DNA from: a bacterium
GTDB lineage: Bacteria; Desulfobacterota; Binatia; HRBIN30; CADEER01
Reading direction: 5' to 3'
NCBI GenBank assembly: GCA_039934135.1
Contig: JBDTMT010000001.1
Coordinates: forward strand, 1-46,355
DNA: 46,355 nt
Positions 12,131 through 37,946 of this stretch are shown in pieces. The notes beneath the pieces are model-generated. The model made no database searches, was not told the DNA's origin, and saw nothing but the letters and a program-made list of their open reading frames with translations. Each line of letters opens with the position of its first letter. The stretch's first letter is position 1. A program made the position numbers and the translations under genes.

Positions 12131-12410
12131 CCCGTCTCCTGGCGCAGCACAACTCGGACAAGTCGCGGCAAGTCGTGAACTTCGCCCTCGCGCTGCACCG
12201 CCATCGCTCGCGGCGCCGTTAGTGAGGATTCAGGTATTCGCATGCCTTGCCGGCAAAGGCACCGCGGAGCGTTTGCCTATCCCGGAAAAGAACCCGACGG
12301 GTACGTTGGACCGACAGACCCAGATCCTCGCTGCACCCGCCGAGCCAGGACGCAGCGCCGAACGGCGCGATCCTGGCGTGCCACGCCGCGAGCCCGAGGC
12401 TCGCTGCCGA

Positions 12411-12848
12411 TCATCTCGGCGGTAGTACCATCTGTGTGCAGCGACACAGCGCCATGGTTCGACCGCTGGTCTCGTTGGTGACCGTCGCATCCCATACGTG
12501 GGTCTGACGACCGAGATGAAGCGGCGTACAGCGACAGGTCACGCGCTCGCCGACGCGCGCCGACGCCAAGAAGTTGGTCTTCAGCTCGATCGTCGTGAAC
12601 GAGCTGCCGGCGGGAATATTGTTGCCGCAGCCGATTGCGGCGCAGATGTCCGCCAGCGCGATCACCGCGGGTGCGAACAGGAAGCCCGTCCCGGCGATGA
12701 GGTTGGCGGTCACGTCGATGTGTCCGACGACCAGATCCGTGGCCGAATGGTCGAACACGCACCCCAGCTGACCCGGCACGAGTGCCGCGAAGAACTCAGT
12801 CGCGCTGCGCGCCCGCATCGCGGCGTCCGTGTCGTCAGGTTGAGTCAT
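12411..12848 (-). CDS. PaaI-family (hotdog-fold) thioesterase
   Basis: Start MTQPDD (12848). Blocks GHIDVTANLIAGTGFLFAPAVIALADI, FTTIELKTNFLASARVGERV, GRQTHVWDATV resemble the PaaI/4HBT hotdog signature. Confidence 0.75.
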   Translation of the reverse strand: MTQPDDTDAAMRARSATEFFAALVPGQLGCVFDHSATDLVVGHIDVTANLIAGTGFLFAPAVIALADICAAIGCGNNIPAGSSFTTIELKTNFLASARVGERVTCRCTPLHLGRQTHVWDATVTNETSGRTMALCRCTQMVLPPR

Positions 12849-13037
12849 GATGGGTTCCTTCCCTGTCGCGCTGCGGCGGCGACGCCACCCGAGCGTTGCC
12901 TGCCGTTCGCATGGCAGCGCCGTGATTGTGCGGCGAGACCCGCTCCCGAGCACAGACCTGTTCTGTGCAGTTCAACCGCCGTTGCTCCTGATGGCGGCAG
13001 CGTATCAAGAAGTGTCCCGTGGCGGCTCCTCCCGCCA

Positions 13038-14628
13038 TCAGCCGCGCGTGTGGACGCTGACGTGGTACGGCTCGAGCGTGTCGATCGAGTCGGGGCGCTA
13101 TCGACGCCGCGGTGCCAGCGGAAATGCGAGATGGTGATTTGATCGGGCTCGACGTCGAGTAGGTGGAAGCCGTTCAGCTCCTGGATCGGCGTGATGGGCT
13201 CGAGCGCCAGGTGTTGGGCGGGTGTGGCGACCGTGCCGCGCGCAGCGGACGGCCAGCCGACGCCGGTGCCGGGGGTGCCGCTGATGATGCTGACGATGGG
13301 GTTGGCGCGGAAGTCGTTGGCGCCGCTGGCGAGAATATGACCGGAGCCTTGGCCGTGGATGTCGCCGCTGACGAACAGCGGCAGACGCGGCATCGCCGAG
13401 GCGGCGGCAAGCAGGCGGTCGTGCTGCGCCAGAAAGCCGCTCGCCCAGCCTGGCTTCGGCACCTCGGTGGTCAGCGCGCCATCGACCAGCACGTCGGGAT
13501 ACCACTCGGCGTATTTGCCGGCGGTCCAGCCGGGTGGGTTCGACGGCATGTGGATGATCTGCTGTGCGTCGCTCTCGGCCATGCGTGCATGTAACCAGGC
13601 TTCGACGTCATCCGGCACCAGTCCGGCGTCGGCACCGTCGGCCGGGTGCATGAAGCCTTTGCAGTCGTAGAGCAGCGCTTCGAGCAGGTGGCCCCAGCGT
13701 ACGGTGCCGAACGATTCGCTCACGCCTTTCGGGCGGTCGCCGGCGCCAGCGCCCGGCAGCGTCACCGGTCCATACGGATCGGGCAGGAACTCCGGGTAGT
13801 AAAGCCACTGCGTGGCGCGCGCCAGCGCGCGACTGAAGACGTCGGGCGGGAACGTCGTCAGCTCCGGCGTCACCTGGTCGTCTTCAAAGTAGTCGTGATC
13901 GTCGCGCAGGAAGAAGACCGGCGTCGCGCGCAGCATGGTGCCGTAGAGCTCGGCGATCTGACCATCGACGGCACCCGTCAGCACGCCCTCGTTCGCCGTG
14001 CCGAGCACCGGTTGGTTGCGGTCGAAGGTCCCGGCGATGCGCTTGGTGGTCGGCGATTGGCCGAGCAGCACGGCCGAGATGCTGGCGCGCAGATCCCAGT
14101 AGACATGGTCGCCGTTGGCCACCACCACATCCGGCGCGAAGCTGAGGCCGCGCTGCAGCAAGCGCCGCCGTATGGCCAGCGGGACATAGAGGCCAAAGGC
14201 GTCATGGCCGCCGGCGCAGGTGTAGGCCAGGATGGCGCACGTGCTGTGGCCGCGCGTTCGGCGCCGGCAGCGTCGTCAGCAACCACGGCGCGGTGATGGC
14301 GCGGCGGCCGATGCGCAGCACCAGTGTATGGGCGCGTTGCGAGACCAGGTCGCGCGCATCGAAGGCCCAGAAGCGACCGCTGCTATCGGTTGGGATGCCT
14401 CGCAGCGCATGCCCGTCGACGCGCAACTCCGGCGTCGCGTCGGGCGGCGCCTGCAGTGACACCTTGAGGTAGATGCGATCGCTGCTCGCGGTCGCGAGGA
14501 TGTGCGCAACCTCGCCGTCATCGGTCGGCTGCACGACCGTGCCGTCGTCGCCGCAGCCCGACAGGGCCAAAGCCGCGCCGGCGGCGCCGGTGAGACGGAG
14601 AAAGTCGCGCCGCCTCATGCGGCTGGTT
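13038..14628 (-). pseudogene. Tat-exported metallophosphoesterase-like protein, disrupted by two frameshifts
   Basis: N-terminus MRRRDFLRLTGAAGAALALSGC (14628). Frame switches near 14231-14240: ...APNARPQHVR in one frame, then ILAYTCAGGHDAFG...ANGDHVYWD...LRDDHDYFEDD...SGDIHGQG in another. A second shift occurs near the GGGG run at 13092-13095, after which a GC3-rich frame reads SIDTLEPYHVSVHTRG-stop (13038). Confidence 0.6.
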
Positions 14629-18315: not shown

Positions 18316-18525
18316 GCGGAGCGCGGGCGCGACACCGGCGCGCCATGACCCGATCGCGGACTGGGGTGATCTCGATCGCCACCACGCAGCTCGGCCGGCA
18401 TGTCGATGGACTCGGACGTCGGCGGGCGCCGAGCTCGCACCGCGCCGCGCCAAGTGACGGTGCTGTCTCGGCGCCCGCTCGCCGAAGTTCGGGGTCGTGT
18501 CGCGCCTGGCGGCCGGCGGCGCCAC

Positions 18526-18545
18526 ATTAGGGAAAGTCCGTATTG
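18526..18545 (+). promoter_or_regulatory. Island motif copy (ATTAGGGAAAGTCCGTATTG)
   Basis: 109 nt upstream of the 18655 start, oriented toward it. Followed by TTGTTC, 18 nt, then TAAGAA, which could be -35/-10 elements. Confidence 0.45.
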
Positions 18546-18654
18546 TTCCTTGCGGTATCCGCATCCTAAGAACGCGCCCCATGCCGCCCCATCGATACGC
18601 TGCCGAGGGCCGATCACTGCGTGCGCCGTCCCGTCGCGCGGTGAATGCGTGCGC

Positions 18655-19446
18655 ATGATGGGCGCGCTCCTACTCGGCCTCGCCGCGCTGTTCGTCGTCG
18701 TCTGCGGCTGGAAGCTGGCGCTGCTCGGCGCCGCCATCGGCCGCCTGCGCAGGGTATCCCCGCGCCGGCGCCCGCTGCTGAGTCAGGCGATTCGCGCCCA
18801 CACGCTGCATCTGCTCCTCGCCGGCGTCGGCATCGCATTGCTGCTGATGGCCGAACGGCTACCCGGCGACGTCTATCTGTATGTCGCACCTCCGCCGCAC
18901 CCGATCGCGACAGCCACCGTGGCGACACCCGGCACGCCGCCGCCCACGCCGCCGCCGACCACTCCGCAAGAAGTGCACGCGATGCGGCTGGCGCGCGAGG
19001 AATTTGTCGACTTCCCGCCCTTCGCCCCAGGGTGCGCCTGCGATGACGAGAAAGCTCGGGACGACGAGGAGACGCAGAAGGTAAAGGACCAGCGCGCGCG
19101 CTCGGTCGAGGAAATGGGCCGACGACTGGCGGCCCAGTACAACAGCAACCAGCTGCGCTTCGTGCTTGTCGTCGGCACATTCGACCACACGTCGCTGAGC
19201 CCTGAGACGAACCGCCGCTATGACAGCAACACCGCGCTGGCGCAGGAGCGAGCCGAATGCGTCGCGCAGATGCTCAGGCCACTCCTCGAGCAGAGCGCCG
19301 CGGGCGCGGACTGGGACGAGATCCTGCACACCATGGTTGCCGGACCGCAGCATGCGCGCGGCCGACATCCCACGGAGCTCTTGCGCGCCCGAGATCGCGG
19401 CGTCCGCATTCTGGTCGGCGGCGACACGGTGGAAAGCAGAGGCTGA
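18655..19446 (+). CDS. Two-TM membrane protein with Pro-rich linker and OmpA/MotB-like C-terminal domain (tentative)
   Basis: Start MMGALLLGLAALFVVVCGW (18655). Second helix LHLLLAGVGIALLLMA. PPPTPPPTTP linker. C-terminal VVGTFDHTS...YDSNTALAQERAECVAQML...RDRGVRILV resembles the OmpA-like peptidoglycan-binding pattern. The stop overlaps the next start (TGATG). Confidence 0.5.
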   Translation: MMGALLLGLAALFVVVCGWKLALLGAAIGRLRRVSPRRRPLLSQAIRAHTLHLLLAGVGIALLLMAERLPGDVYLYVAPPPHPIATATVATPGTPPPTPPPTTPQEVHAMRLAREEFVDFPPFAPGCACDDEKARDDEETQKVKDQRARSVEEMGRRLAAQYNSNQLRFVLVVGTFDHTSLSPETNRRYDSNTALAQERAECVAQMLRPLLEQSAAGADWDEILHTMVAGPQHARGRHPTELLRARDRGVRILVGGDTVESRG

Positions 19447-22208
19447 TGACCAATCCAGCACCCCGTGCGCAGGCGCATTCGTCGCGCAGCTACCTGACCG
19501 ACACGTCGACTGAACACGACCGGCTCAATTTCTACGACACCGCGGTACGGGTCGCCGCGCGTCTGTCGCACCCGTCACAGCAGACGCCGCTCAGCGTCGC
19601 CGTCCAGGGCGCGGACGGCAGCGGCAAGACGACGTTCATGCGCTTGATGCGCGCCGCGCTAAAGGAGCAAAACAGCGCCTGCTGGAGCGTGTGGTACGAG
19701 CCCTGGCGTTTCGATACGGCGCGCGATGCCTGGCGCGGGCTGGTCTACGAATTCACCGACACTGTCGGCACCCCTCAGCGTCGCGGCCGGACATGGTTCG
19801 CCTCCGCCAAGGGATTGATGGAGCGGCGCTGGTCGTACGATCTGCTGCAAGCGGTCGAGGACGATCCGGGTGGTCCGGAGGTCACGCGGCAGTTCAGACG
19901 CTATCTCGAGCGCGTCGCCCAGCGCCTGAACGGTGCGCATGGACCGGCATCGCCGCTGGTGGTGGTCTTCATCGATGACCTCGACCGCTGCACGCCGGAG
20001 AGCGCTGCGGCCGTCCTGCAGGCGTCGACGCTCTTGCTGAACAGCCGCGGATTCGTGACGGTCTTCGGCCTCACGCCGGGCGCGTTCAACTCGATCGGCC
20101 GATCGGCCGCCGCCGGTTCCGGCACCAAGACCCGGATCGCCTCGCCCGAGCGCTTCTTCCAGATCGCGTTGCAAGTGCCGACGGTCAGTCGGGCCCAGTT
20201 CCGCGCCTACGTGGACGCGTGCGTCGATCAGAGCGCCTGCCCGTTCGATCGACGCTGGACGGATGTGCTGTCCTGGGTGCTGTTCCCCAGCCCGCGTGAC
20301 GTCAAGCGGTTCCTCAACTACCTGATCTCCGAGTGGGACAAGGCGGACAGTGCCCGGTTGCTGCCGAGCGAGGCATCGATCACCGCGGGCCACTCGACGC
20401 GCCCTGGTACGAACGACCCGAGCGTCGACGATGCGACGACGGCGGCGAGTGGTACGACGCTCGGCACGACGCCGCCAACGCCGAGCCCTCGTGCCGAGGC
20501 GGCCGGCGTGCTGCGCTCGTCCGCCGACGCGGCGCACTCCCAGTTCGTCCTGCTGGCTCTGCTCACGTGGCGCTTCCCCGAGGTCGCCGACTACCTGCGT
20601 GGCGCTCAGGCCGATCCGGACGCCTTCGACCGCCTGGTCCGCGCCGCGCTGCGCGCGGATGCCGAAGATACCGGAATCGAGGTCGCTGCCCCCGGCGATG
20701 CCAAGGAGGGAAGGGAGCACGGATTCCTGGCCGATCCGGCGCTGCGTGGCCTGATGATCGATTCCTTCGGCACGGCCGAAAGGGGGGCGCATCGTCCGAC
20801 CCTTGTTCCGCCGTTCCGGTCCCCGGCCGAGCTCGGTGGCTTGTTGTTCCACTTCGGCGGTGCGCCGTCGGCGGCCGATCCGCTCAGCGGGTCGCTCGGG
20901 CCGGTCAATCCGGAATGGTCGGCCACCACGAGCCTGCAGGAGGCGCGCGACCGCAGCGCGACGCGCGGCGACATGGCGGCGGCGAAGTGGAGCGCCGAGC
21001 TGCTGCAGCGCCGCCAGTCGACCGATGCGATCGTTAGCATCCGTGCCTATCGCGAGCAGGCGCGCAACAACCAGCAGATGGGTCTGCAGGCGGAGTCGCA
21101 CAATCTGGCGAACGAGGCGCTCGCCATCGCCGCGGGCAACAAGGTCTCGGCCGGGCAACGACCGCTTGCGTATGCCGAGGCACACCTCGCCCTCGCGGAA
21201 CACTTCGCCGCCTTCTCGCCGCTCAGCTCGGCGATCGACCAGGCGCAGGAGGCATGGACCTTCGCCCTCGAGGCCAAAGAATCCAACACCCAACTGCAGG
21301 CGCTGATCGCGTTAACGTATGCGCGCAAGCTCGACTGGCAGAATACCCAGGCGATCGCGGACTGCCGGCAGGCCCTCGAGCTGGACGGCAAGACGGGTGG
21401 CCTGCGCGACGTCACGTTGCGGCTTCTGCTGGCCGAGCTGCATCACCGTCAGGCGCGCCAACACCAGCGCGAATGCAAACAGGCCGCATGGCGCGCCGAG
21501 ATCGACGCGGCACTGGCGCAGAGTGCGCTCATCGATGCTGCGATTGCCGCCGCCCCGCGCGACGAGCGCCAGCGGTACGAACGCCTACGCAGGCGGCTGC
21601 TCGACGCGCAGCGCGACGGTCTCACGGCGGATCCCAACACGCCGAGCCAGCCGGTCGCCTTCATCAGCTACGCGCACAAGAATCCGGAGCCCTTCGGCCG
21701 CGTTCGGACGATCCTCGACGCCTGGAGGGTCAGCGGAAAGTTGCACGTGTGGGAGGACACGCAGATCCAGGTCGGCGCGCTCTGGCAACTTGAGATCGAG
21801 AGCGCCCTCGAAGAAGCCACGCATGCGATCATGCTCTCGTCGCCCGAGTACGAGGCATCGGAATTCATCCGTTGGGTCGAGCGCCCGCGCATCAACTCGA
21901 TGTTCAACCGGGGCGACATCACCCTCCTCATCATTCCGCTCGGCGGGGCGGTCACCAAGTCGACGCTGAGCGGCATCCAGTTCCTGTGGCCCCAGCCGCT
22001 CGATTCGTTGGACGAGGCGCATCGCGACGAAGCGTGGAAGGGCATCACGGCGAAGCTCGAGGCCATCTTCAACCCCCCGCCTCCGGCCGGCGGAGGAGTC
22101 ACGGCCACGGCGGCGGCGGGTAGCGAGGTAGGCAACGCCGCGCCCGTCGGGTCAACCGCGTCATCGGCGCCCCCGCCGTCGTCAGACAGGCCGTCCGCCG
22201 GTGGGTGA
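19446..22208 (+). CDS. KAP-family P-loop NTPase with helical-repeat (TPR-like) middle and C-terminal TIR domain
   Basis: Start MTNPAPR (19446). Walker A GADGSGKTT. KAP signature VVVFIDDLDRC and PRDVKRFLNYL. No TM insertion. Repeat-like alpha region. C-terminal TIR: VAFISYAHK...VWEDTQIQVGALWQLEIESALEEATHAIMLSSPEYEASEFIRWVE. Confidence 0.8.
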   Translation: MTNPAPRAQAHSSRSYLTDTSTEHDRLNFYDTAVRVAARLSHPSQQTPLSVAVQGADGSGKTTFMRLMRAALKEQNSACWSVWYEPWRFDTARDAWRGLVYEFTDTVGTPQRRGRTWFASAKGLMERRWSYDLLQAVEDDPGGPEVTRQFRRYLERVAQRLNGAHGPASPLVVVFIDDLDRCTPESAAAVLQASTLLLNSRGFVTVFGLTPGAFNSIGRSAAAGSGTKTRIASPERFFQIALQVPTVSRAQFRAYVDACVDQSACPFDRRWTDVLSWVLFPSPRDVKRFLNYLISEWDKADSARLLPSEASITAGHSTRPGTNDPSVDDATTAASGTTLGTTPPTPSPRAEAAGVLRSSADAAHSQFVLLALLTWRFPEVADYLRGAQADPDAFDRLVRAALRADAEDTGIEVAAPGDAKEGREHGFLADPALRGLMIDSFGTAERGAHRPTLVPPFRSPAELGGLLFHFGGAPSAADPLSGSLGPVNPEWSATTSLQEARDRSATRGDMAAAKWSAELLQRRQSTDAIVSIRAYREQARNNQQMGLQAESHNLANEALAIAAGNKVSAGQRPLAYAEAHLALAEHFAAFSPLSSAIDQAQEAWTFALEAKESNTQLQALIALTYARKLDWQNTQAIADCRQALELDGKTGGLRDVTLRLLLAELHHRQARQHQRECKQAAWRAEIDAALAQSALIDAAIAAAPRDERQRYERLRRRLLDAQRDGLTADPNTPSQPVAFISYAHKNPEPFGRVRTILDAWRVSGKLHVWEDTQIQVGALWQLEIESALEEATHAIMLSSPEYEASEFIRWVERPRINSMFNRGDITLLIIPLGGAVTKSTLSGIQFLWPQPLDSLDEAHRDEAWKGITAKLEAIFNPPPPAGGGVTATAAAGSEVGNAAPVGSTASSAPPPSSDRPSAGG

Positions 22209-22347: not shown

Positions 22348-23526
22348 ATGAAACTATGCTTCATTTCATACGCGAGGAACAGCAATCTCGACGGCCGGTT
22401 GACGAAGTTCGTCGAGAAGCTGCAGCAGCAACTCCCGGGGCACCTGCCTCACGGTACTAAGCCCGCCGATGTCGTGTTCTTCGATGTGATGGGCATCGAG
22501 AACGGCGACGAGTGGATGCTGCGTCTAGCGGAAGCCACGCGTCGTTGTCGGGTGTGCGTCTGCTTCTACAGTCCACCGTACTTCACGAGTGAATATAGCG
22601 GGCGAGAGGTGCAGGTGTTCCTGCAACGCGTCCATGATTGGAAGACCACGAATCCCGGGCGGGATGTGCAGGCGATCATCCCGGTCATTTGGAGACCCCA
22701 CCATCCGATCCCTGCCGTCTTGCAGGTATTCCAATACGCTCACCAGGGTCTGCCTCCCGCATACGTCGAAGACGGGTTGCACTCGCTCGCTATGCGAAAA
22801 GGCCAGCGAGACGCGTACAATAGAGTTCTCGAAATCCTTTCTGCACGGATCGCAGCTGCATTGCAGGGCGCGCCCCTACCCGATGGACCGCCGATTGCCT
22901 CGTTCGGACAGGTGGCGAGTGCATTCCACGTTGCGCCGAGCCCAACACGGTACGGTGCGTCTGTGATTCTACTCGCCACCCCGGAACGCCGGATGCAGCC
23001 ATTCGCCGCCGCGGCCGTGTCGCTCGATGTCCTGGTGGAGCGAGTTGCCAACAGAAGTGCGGTGCCGTTTCGCGAGATCAATCTCGGCGCACAGACCGCC
23101 GCCGACGTGGCTGCGTCGCAAGCCGCACGGGAGATGCCGGTGTTGGTCGCGGATCGTGCGTCGCTCAGCTCGCCACTCAACCAGCCGCTCGTTCGGGCTC
23201 TGGCGGCGACCTTTGACGCGTCTGCCACTGTGGTCGTCTTTGGCGATCCATCGCCAAATGCGTCCGATGCGGCCGCGGATCTCCGCGGTCTCATCAGCAC
23301 CGCATTCGTGCCGTGGGGCAGCGGTCTGGGATCGACGTCCTGCCTCGTGGCAACCGATCCGGCGATTTTCGAGTCGGAGCTGGAACGTCGATTGACGAAG
23401 GCTCGCCACGAGCTGATCTCGGCTGACCCGGCTGGGCGCGCTCAGCACTCCGGCTTGGAAGCGGAGGCCGCGGCTCGCGGCATCTCGGTCGGCAGTCAGC
23501 CCGTTCTGGCGAGTCCTGGTGCCTGA
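22348..23526 (+). CDS. TIR-like domain protein (FxsC-like architecture: N-terminal TIR-like domain plus uncharacterised C-domain)
   Basis: MKLCFISYARNSN...VVFFDVMGIENGDEWMLRLAEATRRCRVCVCFYSPPYFTSEYSGREV. Visibly lower GC and GC3 than flanking backbone genes. Confidence 0.7.
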   Translation: MKLCFISYARNSNLDGRLTKFVEKLQQQLPGHLPHGTKPADVVFFDVMGIENGDEWMLRLAEATRRCRVCVCFYSPPYFTSEYSGREVQVFLQRVHDWKTTNPGRDVQAIIPVIWRPHHPIPAVLQVFQYAHQGLPPAYVEDGLHSLAMRKGQRDAYNRVLEILSARIAAALQGAPLPDGPPIASFGQVASAFHVAPSPTRYGASVILLATPERRMQPFAAAAVSLDVLVERVANRSAVPFREINLGAQTAADVAASQAAREMPVLVADRASLSSPLNQPLVRALAATFDASATVVVFGDPSPNASDAAADLRGLISTAFVPWGSGLGSTSCLVATDPAIFESELERRLTKARHELISADPAGRAQHSGLEAEAAARGISVGSQPVLASPGA

Positions 23527-23527
23527 T

Positions 23528-25417
23528 ATGCCGCCACGACGAATTGTAGAGTCGGCGAAGAAAAAGCCGCGCGCGGCCGCCTCGTCCAAGAAATCGGCGC
23601 GCGCGCCCGTCGGGAGAGTCATCACTTTCTATTCCTACAAGGGGGGCACGGGGCGCACGATGGCGCTGGCCAACGTCGCTTGGATTCTGGCCAGCAGCGG
23701 CCGCCGTGTGCTGGTGATCGATTGGGACCTCGAGGCACCCGGTCTGCACCGCTACCTGCATCAATTCCTCGACGACAGCGAAGGTACCAACCGGCCCGGG
23801 CTCATCAACTTCCTGTGGGAGTTTGTCGAGGGGGCTCGCGCGCACGTCGATTCCCCGAAGACCGAGTGGTTCGCATCCTATGCGAACCTCGGGCGCTATG
23901 CCTGTTCGCTGGAGTGGGAGTTCCCGGGAGACGGGACGATCGACTTCATCACCGCTGGCCGTCAGGGTTCGTCGTATGCGTCCAGCGTCACGTCATTCGA
24001 CTGGAACGAATTCTATGAGCGGCTCGGTGGGGGAACCTTCCTGGAGGCGGTCAAGAAGAACCTACGTAGCGAGTATGACTACGTCCTGATCGACAGCCGC
24101 ACCGGCATCTCCGACAGCTCGGGGATTTGTACCATCCAGATGCCCGATGATCTGGTCGTCTGCTTCACGCTCAACACGCAGAGCATCCGCGGCGCGGCGG
24201 CGACTGCGGAATCGGCATTCCAGCAGCGCATTACCCCCAGTCGCGCACCCGGGCTGCGGGTATGGCCCGTGCCCACTCGAGTTGAGCTGGCCGAGCGCGA
24301 TCGACTGGAGCGAGCCCGCGACGAAGTGCGGGCTCGATTTCAGAGATTTCTGCATCATCTGCCAGCGAAGAATCGGGTCGCGTATTGGGGGCGGGTGGAG
24401 GTGCTGTACCAACCCTACTACGCCTACGAGGAGGCACTGGCGGTGCTCACCGACCGCCCACAGCAAGTGGGGTCGCTCTTGCAGTCGTTCGAGCATCTCA
24501 CAAGCTACCTGACCGATGGGTCCGTTGAGTCGCTCGCCAGAGGCGTCGGTCAGACGGGACGGTCGGCTCCGCTTCCACCTGTCGGAGAGGATGTGGGTCC
24601 GTTCTTCGTCAGCTACAGTCGAGCCGATGAGGAATTCGCATCACGCCTGGTTCACGCACTTCGTGACCGGCTGGGATCCGCTTCGGTACTCTGGGATCAG
24701 AATCTCCTCGCCGCGGGCGATCCCTTCGGCGAGAAGCTCGCGGTCGCCATGAACGACGCTCAGGCGGTTCTGCCACTCGTCGGTCCGTCGTACGTCGAGA
24801 GCCCGACGACCGAGAGGGAGATTGCGTACGCGCTCGCCCGCGGCTTGCGAGTCATTCCCTTGCTGCTGCCCGGCGTGACCTGGTCTGACCTCTCCGTGCA
24901 GCGCGAGCCGTTCGAGTCGCTCAGGCGATTCTACGGGTTTGAGTTTGGCAAGGGCCTGCCGTCGACGAAGAAATCCTCCGATCCGCTCCGAGTCGGGAGC
25001 GAGGGCGACGTCGACCAACTGATTGAGTTTCTCCGAACCGCGAGTAGCCGGGGACGAGGCGTGGCGGTGGCGGATCCCGACGATCCGCATCGCGGGCAGT
25101 TCGGTGGCCGCAGCGAGCGGAACGGCTTCACCCTGAGCGCCAGGGTTGCGTCGCTCAGCCGCAGCTGGTTCGAGCTCGAGCTTCGGGTGACACGGTATGG
25201 CGCGCCGACAAGCGATACAGGCGAAGTGGAATTTCATATCCATCCGACGTTCGACCCGCCGGTGCGCCGTGTGCGTGGCGGGAAAGACGGCGCAACACTG
25301 ACGCTCGAGACGTACGGAGCCTTCACGGTTGGTGCGATCGTTCTCGACTCACTCTCGATGTTGGAGCTCGACCTCTCGACGCTCAAGCAGGCGCCTAAGG
25401 TCTTTCGAGAGGGGTGA
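23528..25417 (+). CDS. ParA/MinD-like ATPase with variant Walker A (KGGTGR), fused to a TIR domain and a C-terminal pYEATS-like domain
   Basis: ATG 23528 (alternative GTG at 23519). ITFYSYKGGTGRTMALANVAWILASSGRRVLVIDWDLEAPGL. TIR: FFVSYSRADEEFASRLVHAL...VLWDQNLLAAGDPFGEKL...GPSYVESPTTEREI. C-terminus: DPHRGQFGGRSERNGFTLSARV...VEFHIHPTFDPP...LETYGAFTVGA...LELDL. Confidence 0.75.
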   Translation: MPPRRIVESAKKKPRAAASSKKSARAPVGRVITFYSYKGGTGRTMALANVAWILASSGRRVLVIDWDLEAPGLHRYLHQFLDDSEGTNRPGLINFLWEFVEGARAHVDSPKTEWFASYANLGRYACSLEWEFPGDGTIDFITAGRQGSSYASSVTSFDWNEFYERLGGGTFLEAVKKNLRSEYDYVLIDSRTGISDSSGICTIQMPDDLVVCFTLNTQSIRGAAATAESAFQQRITPSRAPGLRVWPVPTRVELAERDRLERARDEVRARFQRFLHHLPAKNRVAYWGRVEVLYQPYYAYEEALAVLTDRPQQVGSLLQSFEHLTSYLTDGSVESLARGVGQTGRSAPLPPVGEDVGPFFVSYSRADEEFASRLVHALRDRLGSASVLWDQNLLAAGDPFGEKLAVAMNDAQAVLPLVGPSYVESPTTEREIAYALARGLRVIPLLLPGVTWSDLSVQREPFESLRRFYGFEFGKGLPSTKKSSDPLRVGSEGDVDQLIEFLRTASSRGRGVAVADPDDPHRGQFGGRSERNGFTLSARVASLSRSWFELELRVTRYGAPTSDTGEVEFHIHPTFDPPVRRVRGGKDGATLTLETYGAFTVGAIVLDSLSMLELDLSTLKQAPKVFREG

Positions 25418-25423
25418 ACGAGC

Positions 25424-26599
25424 TCACGTCCTTGCGAACGGGCCGAAGTGCGTGGCGACCTCTACCTCGCGTTGGCCGACGGCGCGGCCGATGCGGCGGA
25501 GGCTGTCGATCTGATCGACCGCATCCATCTGTTGCACCGCTTCGGAACGCAGGTCGCCGCAGCCGAGCGCTTCGAGGCCGCCGGGGCTGAGGTCGGCGTT
25601 GTAGCGCACGTAGCGGAAAAGACGTTTGTGGTCGCGCGCTCCGTCCCGCTCATCCTCCGCCGGCAAGACCAGATCGCCCATCTCGCGGTCAATCTCGGCG
25701 CCGTGCACGCAGCGGCCGAAGGTGCGGCAATTCACATCCTGATCGACCTGGATGGCGTACATCAACTCGCTGGGCAGGTTCTGGAGATTGCCGAACAGGT
25801 TGCGTTGCGTGGCGTCGGTCACCCCCGCCGCCGCCCCGGTGCCGACCGAGACGAGCAGCAGGTCCGACTCGCCGGTCTTCCAGTTCAGTCGATAGGCCGG
25901 TTGCGTCGCCATGCGGAACAGCAGGAAGGCGGGGTTGTTGTACGGCGTGACGCCACCGTCGACGAAGACGCGCACGTCGTCCGGCCGCTTGGGATTGAGG
26001 CTAATGATCTCGGGTGGGAAGAAGACGGGTGCCGCCGTGCTGGCACGGACCAGCTGCCAGAGCGGGATGCGCAGATTGCAGTCGTCGCGCTCGCAGTCGT
26101 TGTACTTGGCAAAGGGGTTGCTCGAGATCGGCCACGGGGAGTCTGTGGTGATGTTGCGCGTGACGACCAGCAGCAGGCAGCGCAGTCGATCGCTGGTCAG
26201 GTCGGCGGTGCCGCCGCGTCCGTCGTGGAACACCTTGCGTAGCGTCTGTGCCAGCGGCTCGTCCTTGTAGAGGCTGCCGAGCAGCGAGGTGACGCGCTTT
26301 AGCACCGAGGTCTTGTCGAACATGTCCGCGCCCGAAGAGCGATAGAACGTGAGCAGCTCATCGGTCGACATGCCGATCGCCAGGCCGGCGGCGATGATCG
26401 AGCCGGTGCTGGTGCCGCCGATATAGTCGAAGTAATCGCCGAGCCGCTGGATACCGGTCTCGCGATCGATCTGTCGCTCCATTTCGGCGAGGATCTCCAG
26501 CGTCAGCGCGCCGCGGATGCCGCCGCCGTCGAGAGCCAGGAGCTTGCGCGTTCGCTCGGTGGCGAACCGCTCCCTCAGGTGCTGCGGCCAATCGGTCAT
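25424..26599 (-). CDS. Patatin-like phospholipase
   Basis: LALDGGGIRG oxyanion motif, GGTSTGS nucleophile elbow, FVDGGV Asp motif. Convergent with the previous gene, with a 6-nt gap. Confidence 0.85.
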   Translation of the reverse strand: MTDWPQHLRERFATERTRKLLALDGGGIRGALTLEILAEMERQIDRETGIQRLGDYFDYIGGTSTGSIIAAGLAIGMSTDELLTFYRSSGADMFDKTSVLKRVTSLLGSLYKDEPLAQTLRKVFHDGRGGTADLTSDRLRCLLLVVTRNITTDSPWPISSNPFAKYNDCERDDCNLRIPLWQLVRASTAAPVFFPPEIISLNPKRPDDVRVFVDGGVTPYNNPAFLLFRMATQPAYRLNWKTGESDLLLVSVGTGAAAGVTDATQRNLFGNLQNLPSELMYAIQVDQDVNCRTFGRCVHGAEIDREMGDLVLPAEDERDGARDHKRLFRYVRYNADLSPGGLEALGCGDLRSEAVQQMDAVDQIDSLRRIGRAVGQREVEVATHFGPFART

Positions 26600-26885: not shown

Positions 26886-28871
26886 ATGACTATCCGTCCT
26901 CATGCATTCGTCGCCATGCCGTTCGGCGCCAAGCCCACTGCCGATGGCACGCTGCTCGACTTCAATCGCGTCTATCTCGAGCTGATCCAGCCCGCGTTGG
27001 AGAGCGCGGGACTGTCGAGCTTCCGCGCCGACGAGGAGTTGCGCGGCGGCGACATCAAGACCGACATGTTTCAGGAGTTGCTGGTCGCTGACCTGGTGGT
27101 GGCGGATCTGACGATCGACAATCCCAACGTCTGGTACGAGCTCGGTGTTCGGCATGCACTGCGCGCGCGCGGTGTCGTTCTGCTCTGTGGTGGCCGGACG
27201 ACCACGGCCTTCGATCTCTATACCGATCGCAAGCTGCGCTACGGGATCGCCGACGGTGCGCCGGATGCGCGCACGCTGGAGACCGATCGCAGCCGGCTGG
27301 CGGCGATGGTCCAGGCGACGATGGAGTCGTGGCACGGTCGCAAGATCAGTCCCGTCTACCAGCTCCTGCCGAACCTACAGGAGCCGGACTGGAAGACGCT
27401 GCGCGTTGGCGACGTGCGTGAGTTCTGGGATCAGCACGAGGCGTGGGAGCGACGCGTCGACTTGGCGCGCCGGGACGAGCGCATCGGTGACCTGCTGGTG
27501 CTGGCCGACGAGGCGCCGGTCGCCGCCTTTCGCGCCGAGGCCTGGATCAAGGCGGGCCAGGCGCTGCGCAAAGCACACCTGTTTCTCTTCGCCCTCGAAC
27601 AGTTGGACCGTGGTCTGGCGATCGAACCGCTTCACATCACCGGGCTGCGGGAGCGCGGTATCTGCCTGCAACGCCTCGCGCTTATGGGACTCGCCGGCTA
27701 CTCGCTCGAGCGCGCGCGAGATCACTACCGCGACGTCCTCACGCACTATCCCAACGACCCTGAGACCTGGGCTCTCCTGGGCCGCGCCGACAAGGATGCC
27801 TGGACGGCCGCCTGGCGGCTCAAGGATCGAACACCTGTCCAACGCCGGGAGGATGCCGCCTACGAGGACGCGCTCCTGCGTGCTGCCATTGTCAGCTACG
27901 CGAAGGGCTACCGGGTCGACCAGAACCACTATTACTCGGGGATCAACGCGCTCACCCTCATGCATCTCCATGACGACCTCGTCGAAGGAGCGCGCTACCA
28001 GCGTGACTCGGAGATTATGCGCGGCGCCGTACGCTTCGCGGCGGAGGGCGAAGCGGATCGCGACCAGCTCTTCTGGGCGAAGGCCACGATCGGCGATCTC
28101 GAAGTGCTCGTTGGGACGCCCGACACCGTGCAGCAGGCATACAAGGACGCCATCGCCCTCAACGACAAGGATCCGTTCGCTCTCAACTCGGCGCGCGACC
28201 AACTGCTGATGCTGCAGGAGTTGAGCTTTCGGCCGGAGGCGGTCGCGGCGGGTATCGCCACCTTCGACCGCGCGCTCGCTCGCCTCAAGCTACCGGAGCA
28301 ACAATGGGAGCCGCGCCAGGTGTTTCTGTTCAGCGGCCACATCGTTGACGCGCCCGGGCGGCCCCAACCGCGCTTCCCAGCGAGCAAGGTCGACGCCGCG
28401 CGGCAACGGATCGCCGAGGTGTTGGATCGTCACGCCGCGGGACCGGACGACCTCGCCTACTGCCAAGCAGCCGCCGGCGGCGACCTCCTCTTTCTCGAAG
28501 CGTGTCAGCAGCGCCAGGTGCGTTACCGCATCCTGTTGCCGTTTCCCGAGGCAACGTTCCTCACTCGGTCCGTTCTGCCGTCGACCGACGGGGCGGCATG
28601 GCGCGACCGCTACTTTGCAGCGCTCGGCACCGCCGCCGCGCCGCGCATCATGCCCGACGAGCTCGGCCCGTTGCCTCAGCACGTCGACGCCTTCGAGCGC
28701 TGCAACCTCTGGCTGCTGTATAGCGCGCTCGCCTGTGGCCTCGCGCGGGTGCGTTTCGTCTGCTTGTGGGACGGCGGTGGCGGCGACGGCCCGGGCGGTA
28801 CCGCTCACATGTACAACGCGGTGTCGGCGCGCACCGGCCATGTCGATCGAATCGATGTCCACTCGCTCTGA
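26886..28871 (+). CDS. TIR-like/deoxyribohydrolase-like N-domain, TPR (DUF4071/TRAFs-binding-like) core and C-terminal SLOG-like domain
   Basis: N-terminus: AFVAMPFGAKP...VADLVVADLTIDNPNVWYELGVRHAL. Long helical-repeat middle. C-terminus: VFLFSGHIVD...AAGGDLLFLEA...LLPF...CLWDGGGGDGPGGTAHM (Gly-rich loop plus PGGxGT-like motif). Confidence 0.7.
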   Translation: MTIRPHAFVAMPFGAKPTADGTLLDFNRVYLELIQPALESAGLSSFRADEELRGGDIKTDMFQELLVADLVVADLTIDNPNVWYELGVRHALRARGVVLLCGGRTTTAFDLYTDRKLRYGIADGAPDARTLETDRSRLAAMVQATMESWHGRKISPVYQLLPNLQEPDWKTLRVGDVREFWDQHEAWERRVDLARRDERIGDLLVLADEAPVAAFRAEAWIKAGQALRKAHLFLFALEQLDRGLAIEPLHITGLRERGICLQRLALMGLAGYSLERARDHYRDVLTHYPNDPETWALLGRADKDAWTAAWRLKDRTPVQRREDAAYEDALLRAAIVSYAKGYRVDQNHYYSGINALTLMHLHDDLVEGARYQRDSEIMRGAVRFAAEGEADRDQLFWAKATIGDLEVLVGTPDTVQQAYKDAIALNDKDPFALNSARDQLLMLQELSFRPEAVAAGIATFDRALARLKLPEQQWEPRQVFLFSGHIVDAPGRPQPRFPASKVDAARQRIAEVLDRHAAGPDDLAYCQAAAGGDLLFLEACQQRQVRYRILLPFPEATFLTRSVLPSTDGAAWRDRYFAALGTAAAPRIMPDELGPLPQHVDAFERCNLWLLYSALACGLARVRFVCLWDGGGGDGPGGTAHMYNAVSARTGHVDRIDVHSL

Positions 28872-31827: not shown

Positions 31828-32640
31828 ATGTCCGGACGCACGTGGGTCAGGGTGATCCTGCTCCTGTTGCTGGTGCCGCAACGCGGTGCGGCGGCGGAGC
31901 TCGTCGGCTACCTGGCCGAGTTTTCCGACGTCGTCTACTGCCCGCGCGACGCCGCGCCATTGCGGCAGAGCGAGAAGCCGCGCGATCTCCACTTTGGCGA
32001 CGCCGTGATCACGCGCGACGCGCCCGAGCGCAGCGCGGCGGCGAGAGTGTTTCTCGCCGATCGCCAGACGATCGCCATCGCCGGCAACTCCGAGCTCGTC
32101 ATCTCCGGCGTCGACACGCCCGACGGCATGCGCTCCACCAGCGTGCGACTGAACAGCGGCCGCATCCGCGTCTACGTCAGCCCGGGCGCCCACTGTCAGG
32201 TCGAGACGCCTGCCGCCGTCGTCACGTGCCGGCACACCGATTTCGTCGTCGCCGTCGATGCCAGCACCCACGCCACCGACGTCGTCGTCATCGACGGCAT
32301 CGTCGAGGTTCGCGGCGTCGGCCCGGGCGCCGACCACCCGGTGACGGTCCTGCCGTACCAGATGCTGCACGTGGCCGTCGGTGGTCCAGCGGGCCAGCCC
32401 AGCGTCGTCGGTGACGCGGCGCGCGCCCGCTACAGCGCCGGCCTGGATCTCATCGGAGACGGGACCTCCGAGCGTCTGGAGATCGGCCAGCGGCTCGCCG
32501 ATGGCAGCGAGGTGCTCACCGTCGATCGGCCGGACCCACCTTCTTCGGAGCCCTGGGAACCCGGTCCCCGTCAGGAGCAACCGGGAACGATTGCCAATCC
32601 GCTGTTTGGAGTGCCCGGCAATCTGATCGTTGACTATTGA
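31828..32640 (+). CDS. Secreted FecR-domain protein
   Basis: ATG 31828, 2 nt after the previous stop. Signal peptide VILLLLLVPQRGAAA. FecR-like core ...IAIAGNSELVISG...VRLNSGRIRVYV...VETPAAVVTCRHTDFVVAV...VVIDGIVEV. Confidence 0.6.
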   Translation: MSGRTWVRVILLLLLVPQRGAAAELVGYLAEFSDVVYCPRDAAPLRQSEKPRDLHFGDAVITRDAPERSAAARVFLADRQTIAIAGNSELVISGVDTPDGMRSTSVRLNSGRIRVYVSPGAHCQVETPAAVVTCRHTDFVVAVDASTHATDVVVIDGIVEVRGVGPGADHPVTVLPYQMLHVAVGGPAGQPSVVGDAARARYSAGLDLIGDGTSERLEIGQRLADGSEVLTVDRPDPPSSEPWEPGPRQEQPGTIANPLFGVPGNLIVDY

Positions 32641-35600
32641 GCTGGTGCGCTCCAGAGCGCCACCTTCGGCCAGGCCGCGGGTGGGTCGCTGCGCGGAGGG
32701 CGTGGGCACGCAAACATCGTGGCCGCGGCTGGCGTTGGAATGGCGCGGGACTCTTTGGATCGACGCAGCAGCTCGTCAACCGGCACGAAATCGAACCATC
32801 TGTGGATCCGAGCGGTACCGTCAGCACTCGCGGTCGCGACTGCTAGACCATCGGGGCGGAAAGCCACCTGCATCACCGGCCCCGTGTGGCCTGGTAACTC
32901 GCCGATCTCAGTTCCTGTCGCGCTATCCCAGATACGCACTCGTCCTTCCTCGTCGGCTGTAATGACCTGTGCGTTGGCGCCTGGCCGGAAGCGCGCGCTC
33001 CGCATCGGCGTCTGGGTTCTTGCCGGTCGGAGCGTTACGGCATGCCGTCCGCTGGCTACGTCCCAGATGTGCGCCCCACCGTCTGCGGCTGACGCGATGA
33101 GGAGTCGTCCATCGTCGCTGAAGGCGAGATCGTTCACGCGCCCGTTCGCGCCCGCCAGTGAACGCGAAGTGGCGGTCGGTCCCAAGCTCCAGAGCCGCAC
33201 CGCGCCATCGCTGCCGCCAGCGGCGACCAACGCATCGTCCTGCGGGCTGATGGCTGCCGTGGTGAGCGCGCCGAGATCGACGTCCGGACCCTCGTGCGCC
33301 CAGTCTGCGGCGCGCCATCGCTGCAGCATGCCGTCGGACGCGGCGATCAGGAGCGCGCCGTCATGCGCGAAGGTGACGAAGCGCAGAGTCTCGCCCGCCG
33401 CGCAGCTCACCTCTGCGATGTGCGCGCAGCTCCTAGCGTCCCAGATCGCTACCGTGCTGCCGTCATCGCCGGTTGCCAGCCATCGTCCCTGGCGATCCAT
33501 CGCGACGTATCGCAGCGCCGCCGGGCCACTGGCGAGGGGCGGCGGCGTTATCGTGGCGATCAACTCGCCCACGGCGTTCCACGCCCGCGCGGCGCCATCG
33601 CTGCTCGCGGTGAGCAGGTACTGACCGTCGTCGCTGAACACGGCCGCGTTGACGGCGTCGTCGTGCCGCATCGGTCGGCCGGCGTCGTCGGATGCCCAGA
33701 GCCGCACACCGTCATCTGCGCCGGTGGCGAGGAGATGGTCTTCGGCACTGAACGCCAGCCCCCGCACGGCCGAATCGTGTCCCGCCAGGCGGGCGATCGG
33801 TTCGCCGGTGCTCGCCTCCCAGACGATCGCCGTACCATCCGTGCTGGCGGTCGCGACGAAGCGACCGCGCGCGCTGTATTCGACCGCGGTGATCGGGCCC
33901 GTATGTCCCTTGAGGCGTATTGGTGCGTCCGGTTCCCCCCAGATGGTCGCGGTGCCGTCCTCATAGCCGCTCAGCGCGAAGCGACCGTCGGGGCTGAACG
34001 CGATATCATTTGACTGGGTGACCTTGGGCCGGCTGTCAGGCGTGAAGGCGAACTGGATCCCGGCGCCATATTCTTCGAGCTGCTGCTCGGTCAGTGAGCC
34101 GGACGTCCAGGTTCCGTCGCTCGTCCACACGCGGAGTCGATGGCCATCGATGTAGGCGAGGTGTCGACCGTCTGGGGCGAACGCCGCACTGGCGACCGGG
34201 CGGTGCTCGACGGGAAGATCCGCGATCTCGGCCCCGTCCCGCCACAAGCGCACGCCCTTGGCGCCGGCGGTGAGCACGATCGCATCATCCGGCGTCAGCG
34301 ACACCGCCTCCACGTTGTCGTCGGGATCGAGGGCCCGCGGATGGTCGCTCAGCGATATGTCGCGCACGAAGGCACCGTTCCAGGTCCCGACGACGATGAT
34401 CGGCTTGCGTGTGCCCAAGGCCACCGCCCGCACCTGGCCGGGGTCCGCCGCCCAGCGTAGTTGCCGGTCGACGGCGAGGTTGCGCCGTAAGGCCGGCGCG
34501 CCGATGGCCGGGCGCAACGCGGTCGCTTTGCGCGCCAGGCGGACGCTGTCCTGCGGCCGTCGCTCGCGCGCCGCCTCGGCGTCGCTGACCAGCTGTTGCG
34601 CGTCGGCCGTCTGCCTGGCGACATATGCGCGGATGCCCAACCAACCGGTGATCGATAGGACCACGAGCGCGCCCGTGGCCGCGGCGCCGAGGGACAGCCG
34701 GCGGCCGCGGCGGGCGCCAGCGCTGGCAGCGATGAACTGCGTTTCGACGTCGTCGAGACTGAGCCAACCGTCGCGTTGTAAGGCGCGCGCCTCATCGAGC
34801 GCACGGCCGCGGTAGAGATCCCCCGGGTCGCGTCCGGCGCAGTTCCAAAGCGCGGCGGCGGCGGCGAGCCGCGACCGCGCGCGCAGTTGCTCGCTGTGGC
34901 TCTGCACCCAGGAGCGCAGGGGCTCGAAATGCGTGATGAGCGTCTCATGGGCGAGCGTGACGCAGCTTTCGCCATTTTGGTCGGTGGCGATGAACAGGCG
35001 CGCGCCGATGAACGCGTCGATGAAGGCCCGCCGATGCGGGTCGCTCGCCAACGTCGCCATCCGCGCGTAGCGACGCTGGACGCGCTCGCCCGATGTCTCA
35101 CCGAGGGAGGGCGCGGCCGGGGAGATTTGCACGAGGTGCGCGAAGACGTCGCCAGCGGTGTTCCGGGCGGTCGGATCGAGACGGTCCCAGGTGTCGCGCG
35201 CACGCCGGTTGATCGCGCCCTCGAGGCCGCCCATCGCGTCGTAGGCGGCATGGGTGAGGACGCGGTCCGCGGTTCGCTGCGCGTACAGCGCGTCGAGCAC
35301 GAACTGCAACAGCGGGAGGTTCTGGGGCGAGGCGATGGCGTCGTCGCGCAGGCGCTCGTCCAGCAGCTGGCCGGTCTTGGGGTGCGCCTCGAAACGCAGC
35401 GCAGCCAGGCGGGCGGGCAGGCGGATCATCTGGCCGACTTCGGCGGCATCGGGCCAGCGCAGGTCGTATTGCCCGTTGCCGAGCTTGAGCTCGTCGAGTT
35501 CGGGGAGCTCGTGGCAGCGGGCATAGAAGTCGCTGCGCAGCGTCGCCAGCACGTGTACGCCACGGCGAACGAGACGATTGACGACGGCCATGAACGCCGC

Positions 35601-36800: not shown

Positions 36801-36850
36801 GTCGTTGGGTGGCCGCACGCCACCGGCATCGGCCCGCGCTCCGCCGCCGT

Positions 36851-36870
36851 CAATTGGGACTTTCCCGTAG
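36851..36870 (-). promoter_or_regulatory. Island motif copy (CTACGGGAAAGTCCCAATTG in gene orientation), abutting a TTGACG -35-like hexamer
   Basis: 50 nt upstream of the ATG at 36800, oriented toward it. The TTG of the motif is part of TTGACG (36848-36853, minus strand). Confidence 0.5.
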
Positions 36871-37702: not shown

Positions 37703-37710
37703 TCGATCGT

Positions 37711-37892: not shown

Positions 37893-37946
37893 TCCGCTCA
37901 CTGACCGAGGCGCTAGCCAGCGTCGGTCGGCAGGAGGAGCGAGGAC

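Follow-up and report, generated by a model that had tools for sequence, protein, structure and literature searches.

Bacteria, plants, and animals all rely on TIR domains as key elements of immunity. In the bacterial TIR systems known so far, the switch is a STAND NTPase or a cyclic-nucleotide sensor or, in Thoeris, phage is sensed directly. The present analysis concerns two adjacent genes, here called G1 and G2, in a 46,355-nucleotide (nt) stretch of DNA, referred to as the window, from a bacterium of the Desulfobacterota (Binatia; GenBank assembly GCA_039934135.1, contig JBDTMT010000001.1). G1 encodes a TIR-like protein related to FxsC, and G2 a protein in which a MinD/ParA-like ATPase domain is followed by a TIR domain and a C-terminal pYEATS domain. 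Genes for a patatin-like phospholipase and a TPR-S protein lie downstream.

Fxs cassettes are covered by the NCBIfam models NF040588, TIGR04276, NF047398, and NF040586. In Streptomyces (locus L039), the full cassette comprises genes for an FxSxx-COOH peptide, the FxsB radical SAM protein, an AAC(3)-like protein, FxsC, and the ATPase protein, which bears out the statement, in a preliminary description of this DNA made from its sequence, that FxsC-like proteins stand beside KGGVGR ATPases in actinomycetes. Conflict islands of the present kind were described by Kaur et al. (2020; PMC7159879), with ‘inactive’ MinD/ParA-like domains on TIR/AP-ATPase proteins near the FxSxx peptide system. Literature searches on pYEATS, FxsC, KGGVGR, and PDC-M28 gave nothing relevant beyond two papers of the Aravind group, and a paper on the YEATS-like domain of ZAK makes no mention of bacteria. 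In the case of Thoeris, the type VIII effector ThsI combines a cytidine monophosphate (CMP) hydrolase with a TPR domain, and ThsI systems respond to canonical cyclic ADP-ribose (cADPR) made by TIR proteins (bioRxiv 10.64898/2025.12.03.692087, Sorek laboratory). According to the authors of this preprint, a role of the ThsI-type TPR domain in TIR signaling had been predicted by Aravind and colleagues; the domain presumably belongs to the Pfam TPR-S family. ‘SLOG Patatin’ is among the predicted Thoeris effectors of the same preprint, in which two such operons were tried and gave no protection in E. coli.

Compared with these systems, the G1/G2 pair can be read, with about as much weight for as against, as a conflict module made up of these two genes alone and acting, most likely, in phage defense or abortive infection; it belongs to the FxsC/KGGxGR-ATPase family and stands without the FxSxx cassette. 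The module is probably part of bacterial immunity. It shares with the Fxs cassette its gene order and tight coupling, homology of G1 to both domains of FxsC, and an ATPase that passes the AAA_KGGVGR model, but differs from it in lacking genes for the FxSxx peptide, the FxsB radical SAM protein, and an acetyltransferase, in the tail of G2 (TIR-pYEATS in place of TIR-NB-ARC-TPR or FxSxx_TPR), and in the scores of G1, which lie under the curated FxsC cut-offs. No open reading frame (ORF) with an FxSxx end and no genuine CxxxCxxC gene is present in the window, and Pfam scans of the window proteins revealed no radical SAM domain.

The tight linkage noted in the preliminary description is seen at the junction itself, where the G1 stop codon (TGA, 23524-23526) is separated by a single base from the ATG of G2 at 23528; an alternative in-frame GTG at 23519 would give a protein of 632 amino acids (aa). 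Related loci were retrieved from genomes (80) and metagenomes (80), and wherever 1.4 kb or more of sequence preceded the ATPase gene, the upstream gene was scored, the criterion being a same-strand FxsC_N-like domain. An FxsC-like gene was found directly upstream in 90 of 95 KGGxGR ATPase loci, belonging to several phyla, and in 20/20 loci of the ATPase-pYEATS subfamily, so that the two genes together make up a conserved unit; the co-occurrence count suggested in the preliminary description thus came out in favor of the pair. The spacing between the FxsC-like stop and the ATPase start is mostly -4 to +16 nt. In the three closest G2 homologues looked up (L081, L082, and L083; 57-60% identity) the upstream TIR_2 gene is kept, and a 1-nt junction of the G1/G2 type recurs in L081 and L083. 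Downstream genes in these loci are unrelated: DUF4062-NACHT-TPR in L081, a 290-aa protein of no known type in L082, and a succinyl-CoA-ligase/acetyltransferase in L083, where the pair is flanked by housekeeping genes. When 23 subfamily loci were compared all against all over their 4-kb flanks, no third gene family recurred. The pair is thus supported as a unit by its co-occurrence, by the lack of a recurrent third gene and by its persistence amid unrelated flanks. The G+C content at third codon positions (GC3), 0.70 in G1 and 0.76 in G2 as against 0.87 in the patatin gene and 0.82 in the TPR-S gene (0.82-0.89 over the patatin gene and its neighbors), is also counted in support of the two-gene reading. 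Scanning of the 22-27 kb region for promoters and terminators gave no signal above chance.

On profile evidence, G1 is a predicted homologue of FxsC over its whole length, yet one that has diverged below the curated thresholds. The assignment as a TIR-like protein made in the preliminary description is upheld by matches to Pfam TIR_2 (42 bits, cut-off 28) and to NCBIfam FxsC_Nterm (NF040588; 113.4 bits, under the cut-off of 130). FxsC_Cterm (TIGR04276, cut-off 55 bits) gives no hidden Markov model (HMM) match at E 0.1, and the profile-profile alignment of the G1 family to bona fide FxsC proteins spans that domain (hhalign; 378 columns, probability 100%, E 1e-71). G1 is regarded as a full-length FxsC homologue because this alignment covers both domains. 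ATPase partners from other phyla pass the cut-offs of both FxsC_Nterm and FxsC_Cterm. A search at E <= 0.001 yields 2,613 representatives of the G1 family, and S7, F44, E87, R94, and W115 are invariant in an alignment of 71 diverse members; Glu87, which occupies the usual TIR catalytic position, could be catalytic. The AlphaFold2 model of G1 (predicted local distance difference test, pLDDT, 92.7) consists of a tandem pair of flavodoxin-like alpha/beta domains, with beta-alpha alternation in the C-terminal one. Foldseek searches with this model returned weak matches only, to the TIR domain of RPP1, the SPARTA TIR-APAZ protein, MyD88, and other flavodoxin-like folds. MicD, from a study of ADP-ribosylated triceptides, was considered as an FxsC-like protein and rejected, since it has a classical ADP-ribosyltransferase fold (PMC12912966).

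The three-domain fusion proposed for G2 in the preliminary description is confirmed, all three domains scoring over their cut-offs. The ATPase domain matches NCBIfam AAA_KGGVGR (NF047398) over aa 30-225 at 154.2 bits (cut-off 90), and it is the most conserved portion of G2, with dense invariant columns in a 36-sequence alignment in which KGGTGR, IDWDLEAPGLHRY, and DSRTG do not vary. The ATPase of G2, like those of its relatives, also matches PADLOC PDC-M28B, in the case of G2 at 1e-24 and over part of the profile only; in contrast to PDC-M28 systems, neither G1 nor the partner genes scanned, which came from 12 related loci, matched PDC-M28A. Alignment with E. coli MinD (hhalign; reference sequence verified against PDB 3q9l) places K38, R43, T44, D65, and D67 of G2 on K11, K16, T17, D38, and D40, with 94% probability for the first 45 residues, the remaining domain being too divergent to align. 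The signature Walker A lysine had been described as replaced. A lysine is indeed replaced, namely that of the canonical P-loop (MinD K16), which is Arg43 in G2, but the N-terminal signature lysine is retained as K38. Thus, G2 keeps the equivalents of K11, T17, D38, and D40 of the deviant Walker A ATPases, but its KGGTGRT departs from the KGGxxK[ST] motif with both lysines, it carries a TIR-pYEATS fusion, and its scores fall far below the cut-offs of the family-level HMMs (minD_bact, 35.7 vs. 212.9; ParA_partition, 26 vs. 180), only the generic Pfam models AAA_31, CbiA, and VirC1 being passed. Pfam detects no STAND core (NACHT, NB-ARC or nSTAND) in G2.

The TIR domain of G2 matches Pfam TIR_2 over aa 359-450 (65 bits, cut-off 28), and its best solved relatives are the bacterial TIRs BtpA and PdTIR, the NADases AbTIR and SARM1, and Cat1. 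Glu431, at the conserved TIR position, could be catalytic. More than 4,400 G2 homologues were found, and the domain architecture of G2 recurs in nearly all of the top 120. In some Acidobacteriota (L006, 9998-12325; L007, 9965-13212; L028, 9929-14016), the ATPase-fused TIR is closer to the FxsC N-terminal domain than to the G2 TIR, and a tandem second short ATPase gene follows in L007 and L028. The locus is like Thoeris in the TIR_2 scores, in the catalytic Glu position kept by both E87 of G1 and E431 of G2, in the defense context, and in the neighboring TPR-S and patatin genes, which recall the effector classes ‘CMP hydrolase and TPR’ and ‘SLOG Patatin’. It is unlike Thoeris in that G2 reaches only 36 bits with ThcB4 (cut-off 220) and PADLOC ThsB matches are limited to 1e-5 to 1e-3. 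Furthermore, the described types have no ATPase, FxsC-like partner or pYEATS, and no effector gene is conserved beside the pair, TPR-S occurring in the window and L087 only and patatin in the window only among the 23 subfamily loci.

The C-terminal domain of G2 matches Pfam pYEATS (PF20305) over aa 562-606 at 43.6 bits, above the gathering cut-off of 26.9. Modeled with AlphaFold2 from 15 homologues, the C-terminal 120 residues form an all-beta sandwich (pLDDT 87). In a Foldseek search of the PDB, nearly all of the top matches to this model were YEATS domains, mostly eukaryotic (Taf14, GAS41, YEATS2, ENL, AF9, Yaf9, and Sas5), with modest scores (E 9e-4 to 3e-2, template-modeling score, TM, ~0.4-0.5). 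A YEATS-type immunoglobulin-like fold is thus supported by modeling, and the check by profile and structure searches that the preliminary description had proposed has yielded both TIR and pYEATS matches. A profile alignment with AF9 (sequence verified against PDB 7vkg), of low probability (8%), puts VEFHIHPTF of G2 on VVFHLHESF and YGAF on YAGF. Work by Li et al. from 2014 reportedly assigns H56, S58, F59, Y78, and F81 to the acetyl-lysine pocket of AF9. Equivalents of all five are found in G2, with Thr in place of S58. The domain therefore resembles the eukaryotic acyl-lysine readers (AF9, ENL, Taf14, and GAS41) in its best structural matches and in most of its pocket positions, and it differs from them in the TM of ~0.5, in the 8% hhalign probability, and in being part of bacterial effector proteins rather than chromatin. 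In metagenome loci, pYEATS is also C-terminal in SIR2_2 proteins (L094, L117, L123, and L152), YLATT three-transmembrane proteins (L125 and L163), and an FRG protein (L118), and is a mobile C-terminal module common to several effector proteins. These SIR2-like, three-transmembrane, and FRG proteins have 300-490 aa and look like single-protein systems with one common sensor domain.

The family has thousands of members, spanning Acidobacteriota, Planctomycetota, Verrucomicrobiota, Myxococcota, Nitrospirota, and Actinomycetota, and the region behind the ATPase varies among them (Table 1). A constant FxsC-like TIR protein and a constant ATPase with a variable tail resemble the layout of nucleotide-binding leucine-rich-repeat (NLR) receptors built on a ParA-like switch. 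Because the core is constant and the tail variable, G2 is read as an NLR-like receptor and G1 as its constant TIR partner. The likeness to STAND and NLR-like proteins (Avs/bNACHT, TIR-NB-ARC-TPR) lies in the TIR effector, the nucleotide switch, and the C-terminal sensor, and in relatives of G2 that bear NB-ARC-TPR or the C-terminal part of nSTAND1 behind the same ATPase; the differences are that the switch of G2 is a SIMIBI-class MinD/ParA-like KGGTGR domain and that an FxsC-like partner is encoded separately. Distant ATPase(-TIR) relatives are present on rhizobial megaplasmids (L171, Sinorhizobium pSchITTGS70c, 5673-8199; L172, Rhizobium pCC1099_2, 5327-8202), with a small 106-aa gene or a helix-turn-helix gene upstream in place of FxsC and with TIR, SIR2, FRG, and UvrD helicase genes in the surroundings.

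Table 1. Genes, domains, and residues of the G1/G2 locus and its downstream neighbors (positions in the window), and regions behind the ATPase domain in related loci (positions in the respective locus).
Feature	Source	Position	Strand	Length or residues	Description
G1	Window	22348-23526	+	392 aa	Divergent FxsC-family protein (predicted), constant partner of the ATPase gene
G1 N-terminal domain	Window	22348-22902	+	aa 1-185	TIR-like
G1 Glu87 codon	Window	22606-22608	+		Usual TIR catalytic position, after the third strand
G1 C-terminal domain	Window	22903-23523	+	aa 186-392	Second flavodoxin-like alpha/beta domain, putative distant FxsC_Cterm homologue (hhalign)
G2	Window	23528-25417	+	629 aa	KGGTGR ATPase-TIR-pYEATS protein, ATG start
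G2 nucleotide-binding domain	Window	23612-24562	+	aa 29-345	MinD/ParA-type; NCBIfam AAA_KGGVGR, PADLOC PDC-M28B
G2 variant Walker A	Window	23639-23659	+	K38-G-G-T-G-R43-T44	Read in the sequence; hhalign to MinD
G2 TIR domain	Window	24596-24937	+	aa 357-470	TIR_2, 65 bits
G2 Glu431 codon	Window	24818-24820	+		Conserved TIR Glu position
G2 pYEATS domain	Window	25070-25414	+	aa 515-629	PF20305
Patatin-like phospholipase gene	Window	25424-26599	-	391 aa	Neighboring module, not a conserved part of G1/G2
TPR-S protein gene	Window	26886-28871	+	661 aa	Conserved partner of the patatin gene
Region behind ATPase	L023, Micromonospora				TIR-NB-ARC-TPR
Region behind ATPase	L039, Streptomyces				NCBIfam ‘FxSxx-COOH system TPR protein’
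Region behind ATPase	L029, Nitrospira				TIR-pentapeptide repeats
Region behind ATPase	L010, Acidobacteria; L050, Longimicrobium				nSTAND1 C-terminal part and TPR
Region behind ATPase	L034, Holophagales	10061-13648			nSTAND1 C-terminal part and whole TPR-S-type protein (position is that of the entire ATPase fusion); FxsC gene precedes
Region behind ATPase	L036, Pyrinomonadaceae	9980-14305		1,441 aa	ATPase, nSTAND1 C-terminal part, TPR-S, and patatin in one protein (position and length are those of the entire fusion); FxsC gene precedes

In the two-gene reading, G2 would be an NLR-like sensor-switch-effector, the C-terminal pYEATS domain of which would recognize a trigger. Its ParA/MinD-type domain would bind ATP, and the Arg in the P-loop would make it a slow or non-hydrolyzing dimerization switch that brings the TIR domains together. 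G1, made in fixed proportion through translational coupling, would serve as the constant TIR-like partner with its invariant Glu. The assembled TIRs would then cleave NAD+, acting through depletion or through an ADP-ribose-derived signal, and the infected cell would be stopped. These biochemical steps, like the biological role of the pair, we infer. Besides pair conservation and composition, the evidence counted in favor comprises the ATPase motifs, invariant and matching catalytic residues of MinD, the likeness of the G2 TIR to TIRs that cleave NAD, the exchangeable tails behind the ATPase, the presence of pYEATS in other effector proteins, and the surroundings, both the conflict genes of the window and the TIR, SIR2, and UvrD genes near the plasmid relatives. 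A more far-reaching proposal, which is quite unlikely in its full form, is that the FxsC/KGGxGR pair represents an NLR-analogous receptor class in which an Arg-P-loop ParA sandwich dimer replaces the STAND switch, pYEATS, most of whose acyl-lysine pocket is kept, senses infection through lysine acylation or a related acyl-amide ligand, the TIRs of G1 and G2 fire as a heteromeric assembly, and in certain genomes, perhaps including the present one, the product drives TPR-S/patatin as well. The parts have already been catalogued singly (FxsC and AAA_KGGVGR in NCBIfam, pYEATS in Pfam), and G1/G2 is an ordinary-looking member of a large uncharacterized family. If the two-gene reading is true, the family would add a different kind of TIR switch, a ParA/MinD-type dimerizing nucleotide-binding domain with an uncommon Arg P-loop, and a different kind of sensor, a YEATS-like reader domain. 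It also bears on the role of FxsC and the KGGVGR ATPase in the Fxs cassettes of actinomycetes. The pair is a good candidate for experimental testing, if no surprise to specialists.

Several observations weigh against this reading. The MinD/ParA-like domains of such systems were called inactive by Kaur et al. (PMC7159879), and the Lys-to-Arg change in G2 could abolish nucleotide binding. Glu431 is not universal, position 431 being Glu in 95/118 and Gln in 11/118 sequences (G2 and 117 homologues). One pocket position is lost, the equivalent of AF9 F28 being neither aromatic nor conserved in G2. No copy of the full architecture was found on a phage or a plasmid: searches of a phage collection gave no match, and what plasmids have is limited to the ATPase domain, alone or with TIR. 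Full-text literature searches turned up no experimental work on any family member. Finally, TPR-S and patatin are repeatedly found near this ATPase family or fused to it, which suggests that the neighboring genes are perhaps not independent of the pair.

This last point concerns the patatin gene, which, as stated in the preliminary description, converges on G2 with a gap of 6 nt (G2 stop, 25415-25417; patatin stop, 25424-25426, TCA on the + strand). The patatin protein matches Pfam Patatin at 95.8 bits (cut-off 27.7). Its nearest curated family is NCBIfam CBASS_lipase (cGAMP-activated), and its nearest solved structures are the CapV-type cyclic-nucleotide-activated lipases, with which it shares the DGGGIRG and GTSTG motifs. 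It differs from CBASS CapV in scoring 126 bits, under the cut-off of 200, in lacking a cyclase (CD-NTase) among the scanned window proteins, and in its TPR-S partner. The TPR-S protein matches Pfam TPR-S at 56.9 bits and MAP3K_TRAF_bd (PF13281, the TRAF-binding region of ASK-type kinases) at 28.8 bits. Nine contexts of patatin orthologues (58-83% identity) were examined. A TPR-S gene adjoins the orthologue in eight of them, co-directionally and overlapping in L164, L167, L173, L174, and L175, divergently in L165 and L170, and convergently in L176; none is present in L169. The G1/G2 pair is absent from all nine. Four of the nine also have a SLATT/DUF4231 gene and a separate TIR gene, the TIR of L175 being a faint Pfam hit only, and no TIR gene is near the patatin and long TPR-S genes of L164, L167, and L174. 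Since TPR-S adjoins the orthologues in 8/9 contexts and G1/G2 in none, the patatin gene is assigned to the TPR-S gene as its conserved partner, and the two form a separate module of their own, which by domain content looks like a signal-responsive effector set of the kind listed for Thoeris; sequence comparisons did not confirm such a membership. The suggestion of a patatin executioner fixed to the pair does not hold, patatin being absent from all 22 other ATPase-TIR-pYEATS loci examined. For annotation, this means that a patatin gene beside TIR genes is not their effector by default; here it is part of the patatin/TPR-S module.

The foremost alternative is nevertheless a four-gene, Thoeris-like system, in which the TIRs of G1 and G2 make a nucleotide signal, e.g., a cADPR isomer, that is sensed by the TPR-S protein, which in turn activates the patatin lipase to destroy the membrane. 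In substance, this is the model of the preliminary description extended by the TPR-S gene. This account is tentative and clearly the less probable, but it has several observations on its side. The four genes are contiguous in the window, and the same set occurs in a row and co-directionally in L031 (Thermoanaerobaculia), as FxsC, a short ATPase, a patatin (57% identical), and TPR-S. In L087, 61 nt separate a TPR-S gene from the ATPase-TIR-pYEATS gene (45% identical to G2) upstream of it, and single proteins join the ATPase with an entire TPR-S protein in L034 and with TPR-S and patatin in L036. ThsI of type VIII Thoeris provides a precedent for a TPR effector responsive to TIR-made cADPR, as ‘SLOG Patatin’ does among predicted effectors (bioRxiv 10.64898/2025.12.03.692087); the window patatin is nearest to signal-activated lipases of the CapV type; and convergence is no obstacle, the patatin gene of L176 being likewise convergent on a TIR-TPR-S-SLATT operon. 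However, among the 20 other subfamily loci with more than 500 nt downstream of the ATPase gene, TPR-S is found in L087 only and patatin in 0/20, and the closest G2 homologues (L081-L083) have neither. Patatin and long TPR-S occur by themselves in the TIR-free surroundings of L164, L167, and L174, and GC3 differs between the G1/G2 pair and the patatin and TPR-S genes. TIR-pYEATS is replaced by TPR-S and patatin parts in L034 and L036, which fits interchangeable modules better than partners, and neither of the two ‘SLOG Patatin’ operons tried in the preprint protected E. coli. Because the pair is usually without these neighbors and patatin/TPR-S occurs without TIR, the four-gene system is kept as a serious rival and not as the best explanation. 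Coupling of G1/G2 to patatin/TPR-S is possible, given the few adjacencies and fusions on record, but it would be the exception, and TIR signaling to the neighboring lipase module is possible in this window.

A second alternative, very unlikely on balance, is that of a non-catalytic scaffold, in which the KGGTGR ATPase is dead and the TIRs are adaptors recruiting effectors of the island, such as caspase, CHAT, and STAND proteins. It follows a general proposal for conflict systems of multicellular-type bacteria and agrees with the predicted inactivity of the MinD/ParA-like domains (PMC7159879), with the replacement of Glu431 by Gln or another residue in about one-fifth of the homologues, and with the many potential downstream effectors within the island. 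On the other hand, the ATPase is the most conserved part of G2, and a function that depends on nucleotide is favored by the invariance of three of its elements, the Walker A variant, the switch aspartates, and Walker B; moreover, Glu87 of G1 is invariant in 71 sequences, and the pair is also found outside such islands (L083).

That the pair is a remnant or variant of an Fxs peptide system, regulating or answering a modified peptide made elsewhere in the genome instead of sensing phage directly, is hardly probable, for although G1 is homologous to FxsC end to end, FxsC and the ATPase come after the FxSxx-COOH peptide and FxsB radical SAM genes in Streptomyces L039, and Kaur et al. tie the peptide system to TIR/AP-ATPase effectors (PMC7159879), the window has neither an FxSxx-ended ORF nor a radical SAM gene, G1 falls under both FxsC cut-offs that partners from other phyla pass, and the pYEATS subfamily is also found in phyla and surroundings where such a cassette is not close by.

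Beyond the pair, the 19-46 kb part of the window is a dense conflict island with genes for KAP NTPase-TIR, G1/G2, patatin/TPR-S, nSTAND1-WD40, a BTAD regulator, DUF7379-CHAT-TPR-S, and caspase. Shared synteny of this island with L081 (CHAT, caspase) was considered and rejected, as the identity is just 27-31%. The only Rfam hit in the window is a tRNA gene at 8444-8529 (58 bits), distant from the G1/G2 locus. It adjoins a dip in G+C content (0.60 at 9-10 kb), lies ~10 kb ahead of the island and could be an integration site.

In the TPR-S protein, the N-terminal domain has invariant PFG.K and N.N..YELG.RHA motifs and no library match. Its interpretation as a nucleoside-2-deoxyribosyltransferase or CMP hydrolase was not confirmed by Pfam (13 N-terminal domains), by hhalign against the FxsC family or by a PDB search. 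A SLOG-like C-terminal domain, guessed from motifs, was likewise not confirmed by hhalign against the FxsC family and a PDB sequence search with the whole protein. This C-terminal domain of ~200 aa (28248-28868) has invariant FxGHxxD, PRFP, GGD..F.E, and GDGPGGT motifs and appears to be mobile. A 297-aa ORF at 36809-37702, beside the nSTAND1-WD40 gene, is 48% identical to it and 35-39% identical to the matching domains of L031, L034, and L036. Beside the patatin orthologues of L176 (2702-6010) and L165 (4985-8621) there are operons of a small TIR, a TPR-S, and a SLATT/DUF4231 protein, which resemble the cADPR-dependent Thoeris types VII/VIII by domain content; the L176 TIR has no significant similarity to the published type VII/VIII Thoeris TIR sequences.

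Further downstream, the region 32634-45753 encodes the nSTAND1-WD40 protein (1,394 aa), the BTAD regulator, a 1,870-aa protein with DUF7379, lipase-like, CHAT, and TPR-S parts, and a caspase-family peptidase. On the other side, 139 nt upstream of G1 (18400-22208 region), a KAP-family P-loop NTPase with a C-terminal TIR is encoded. Its likely start, ATG at 19446, shares one base with the stop codon of a 348-aa ORF that carries no annotation (18400-19446), which suggests that these two genes are another coupled pair.

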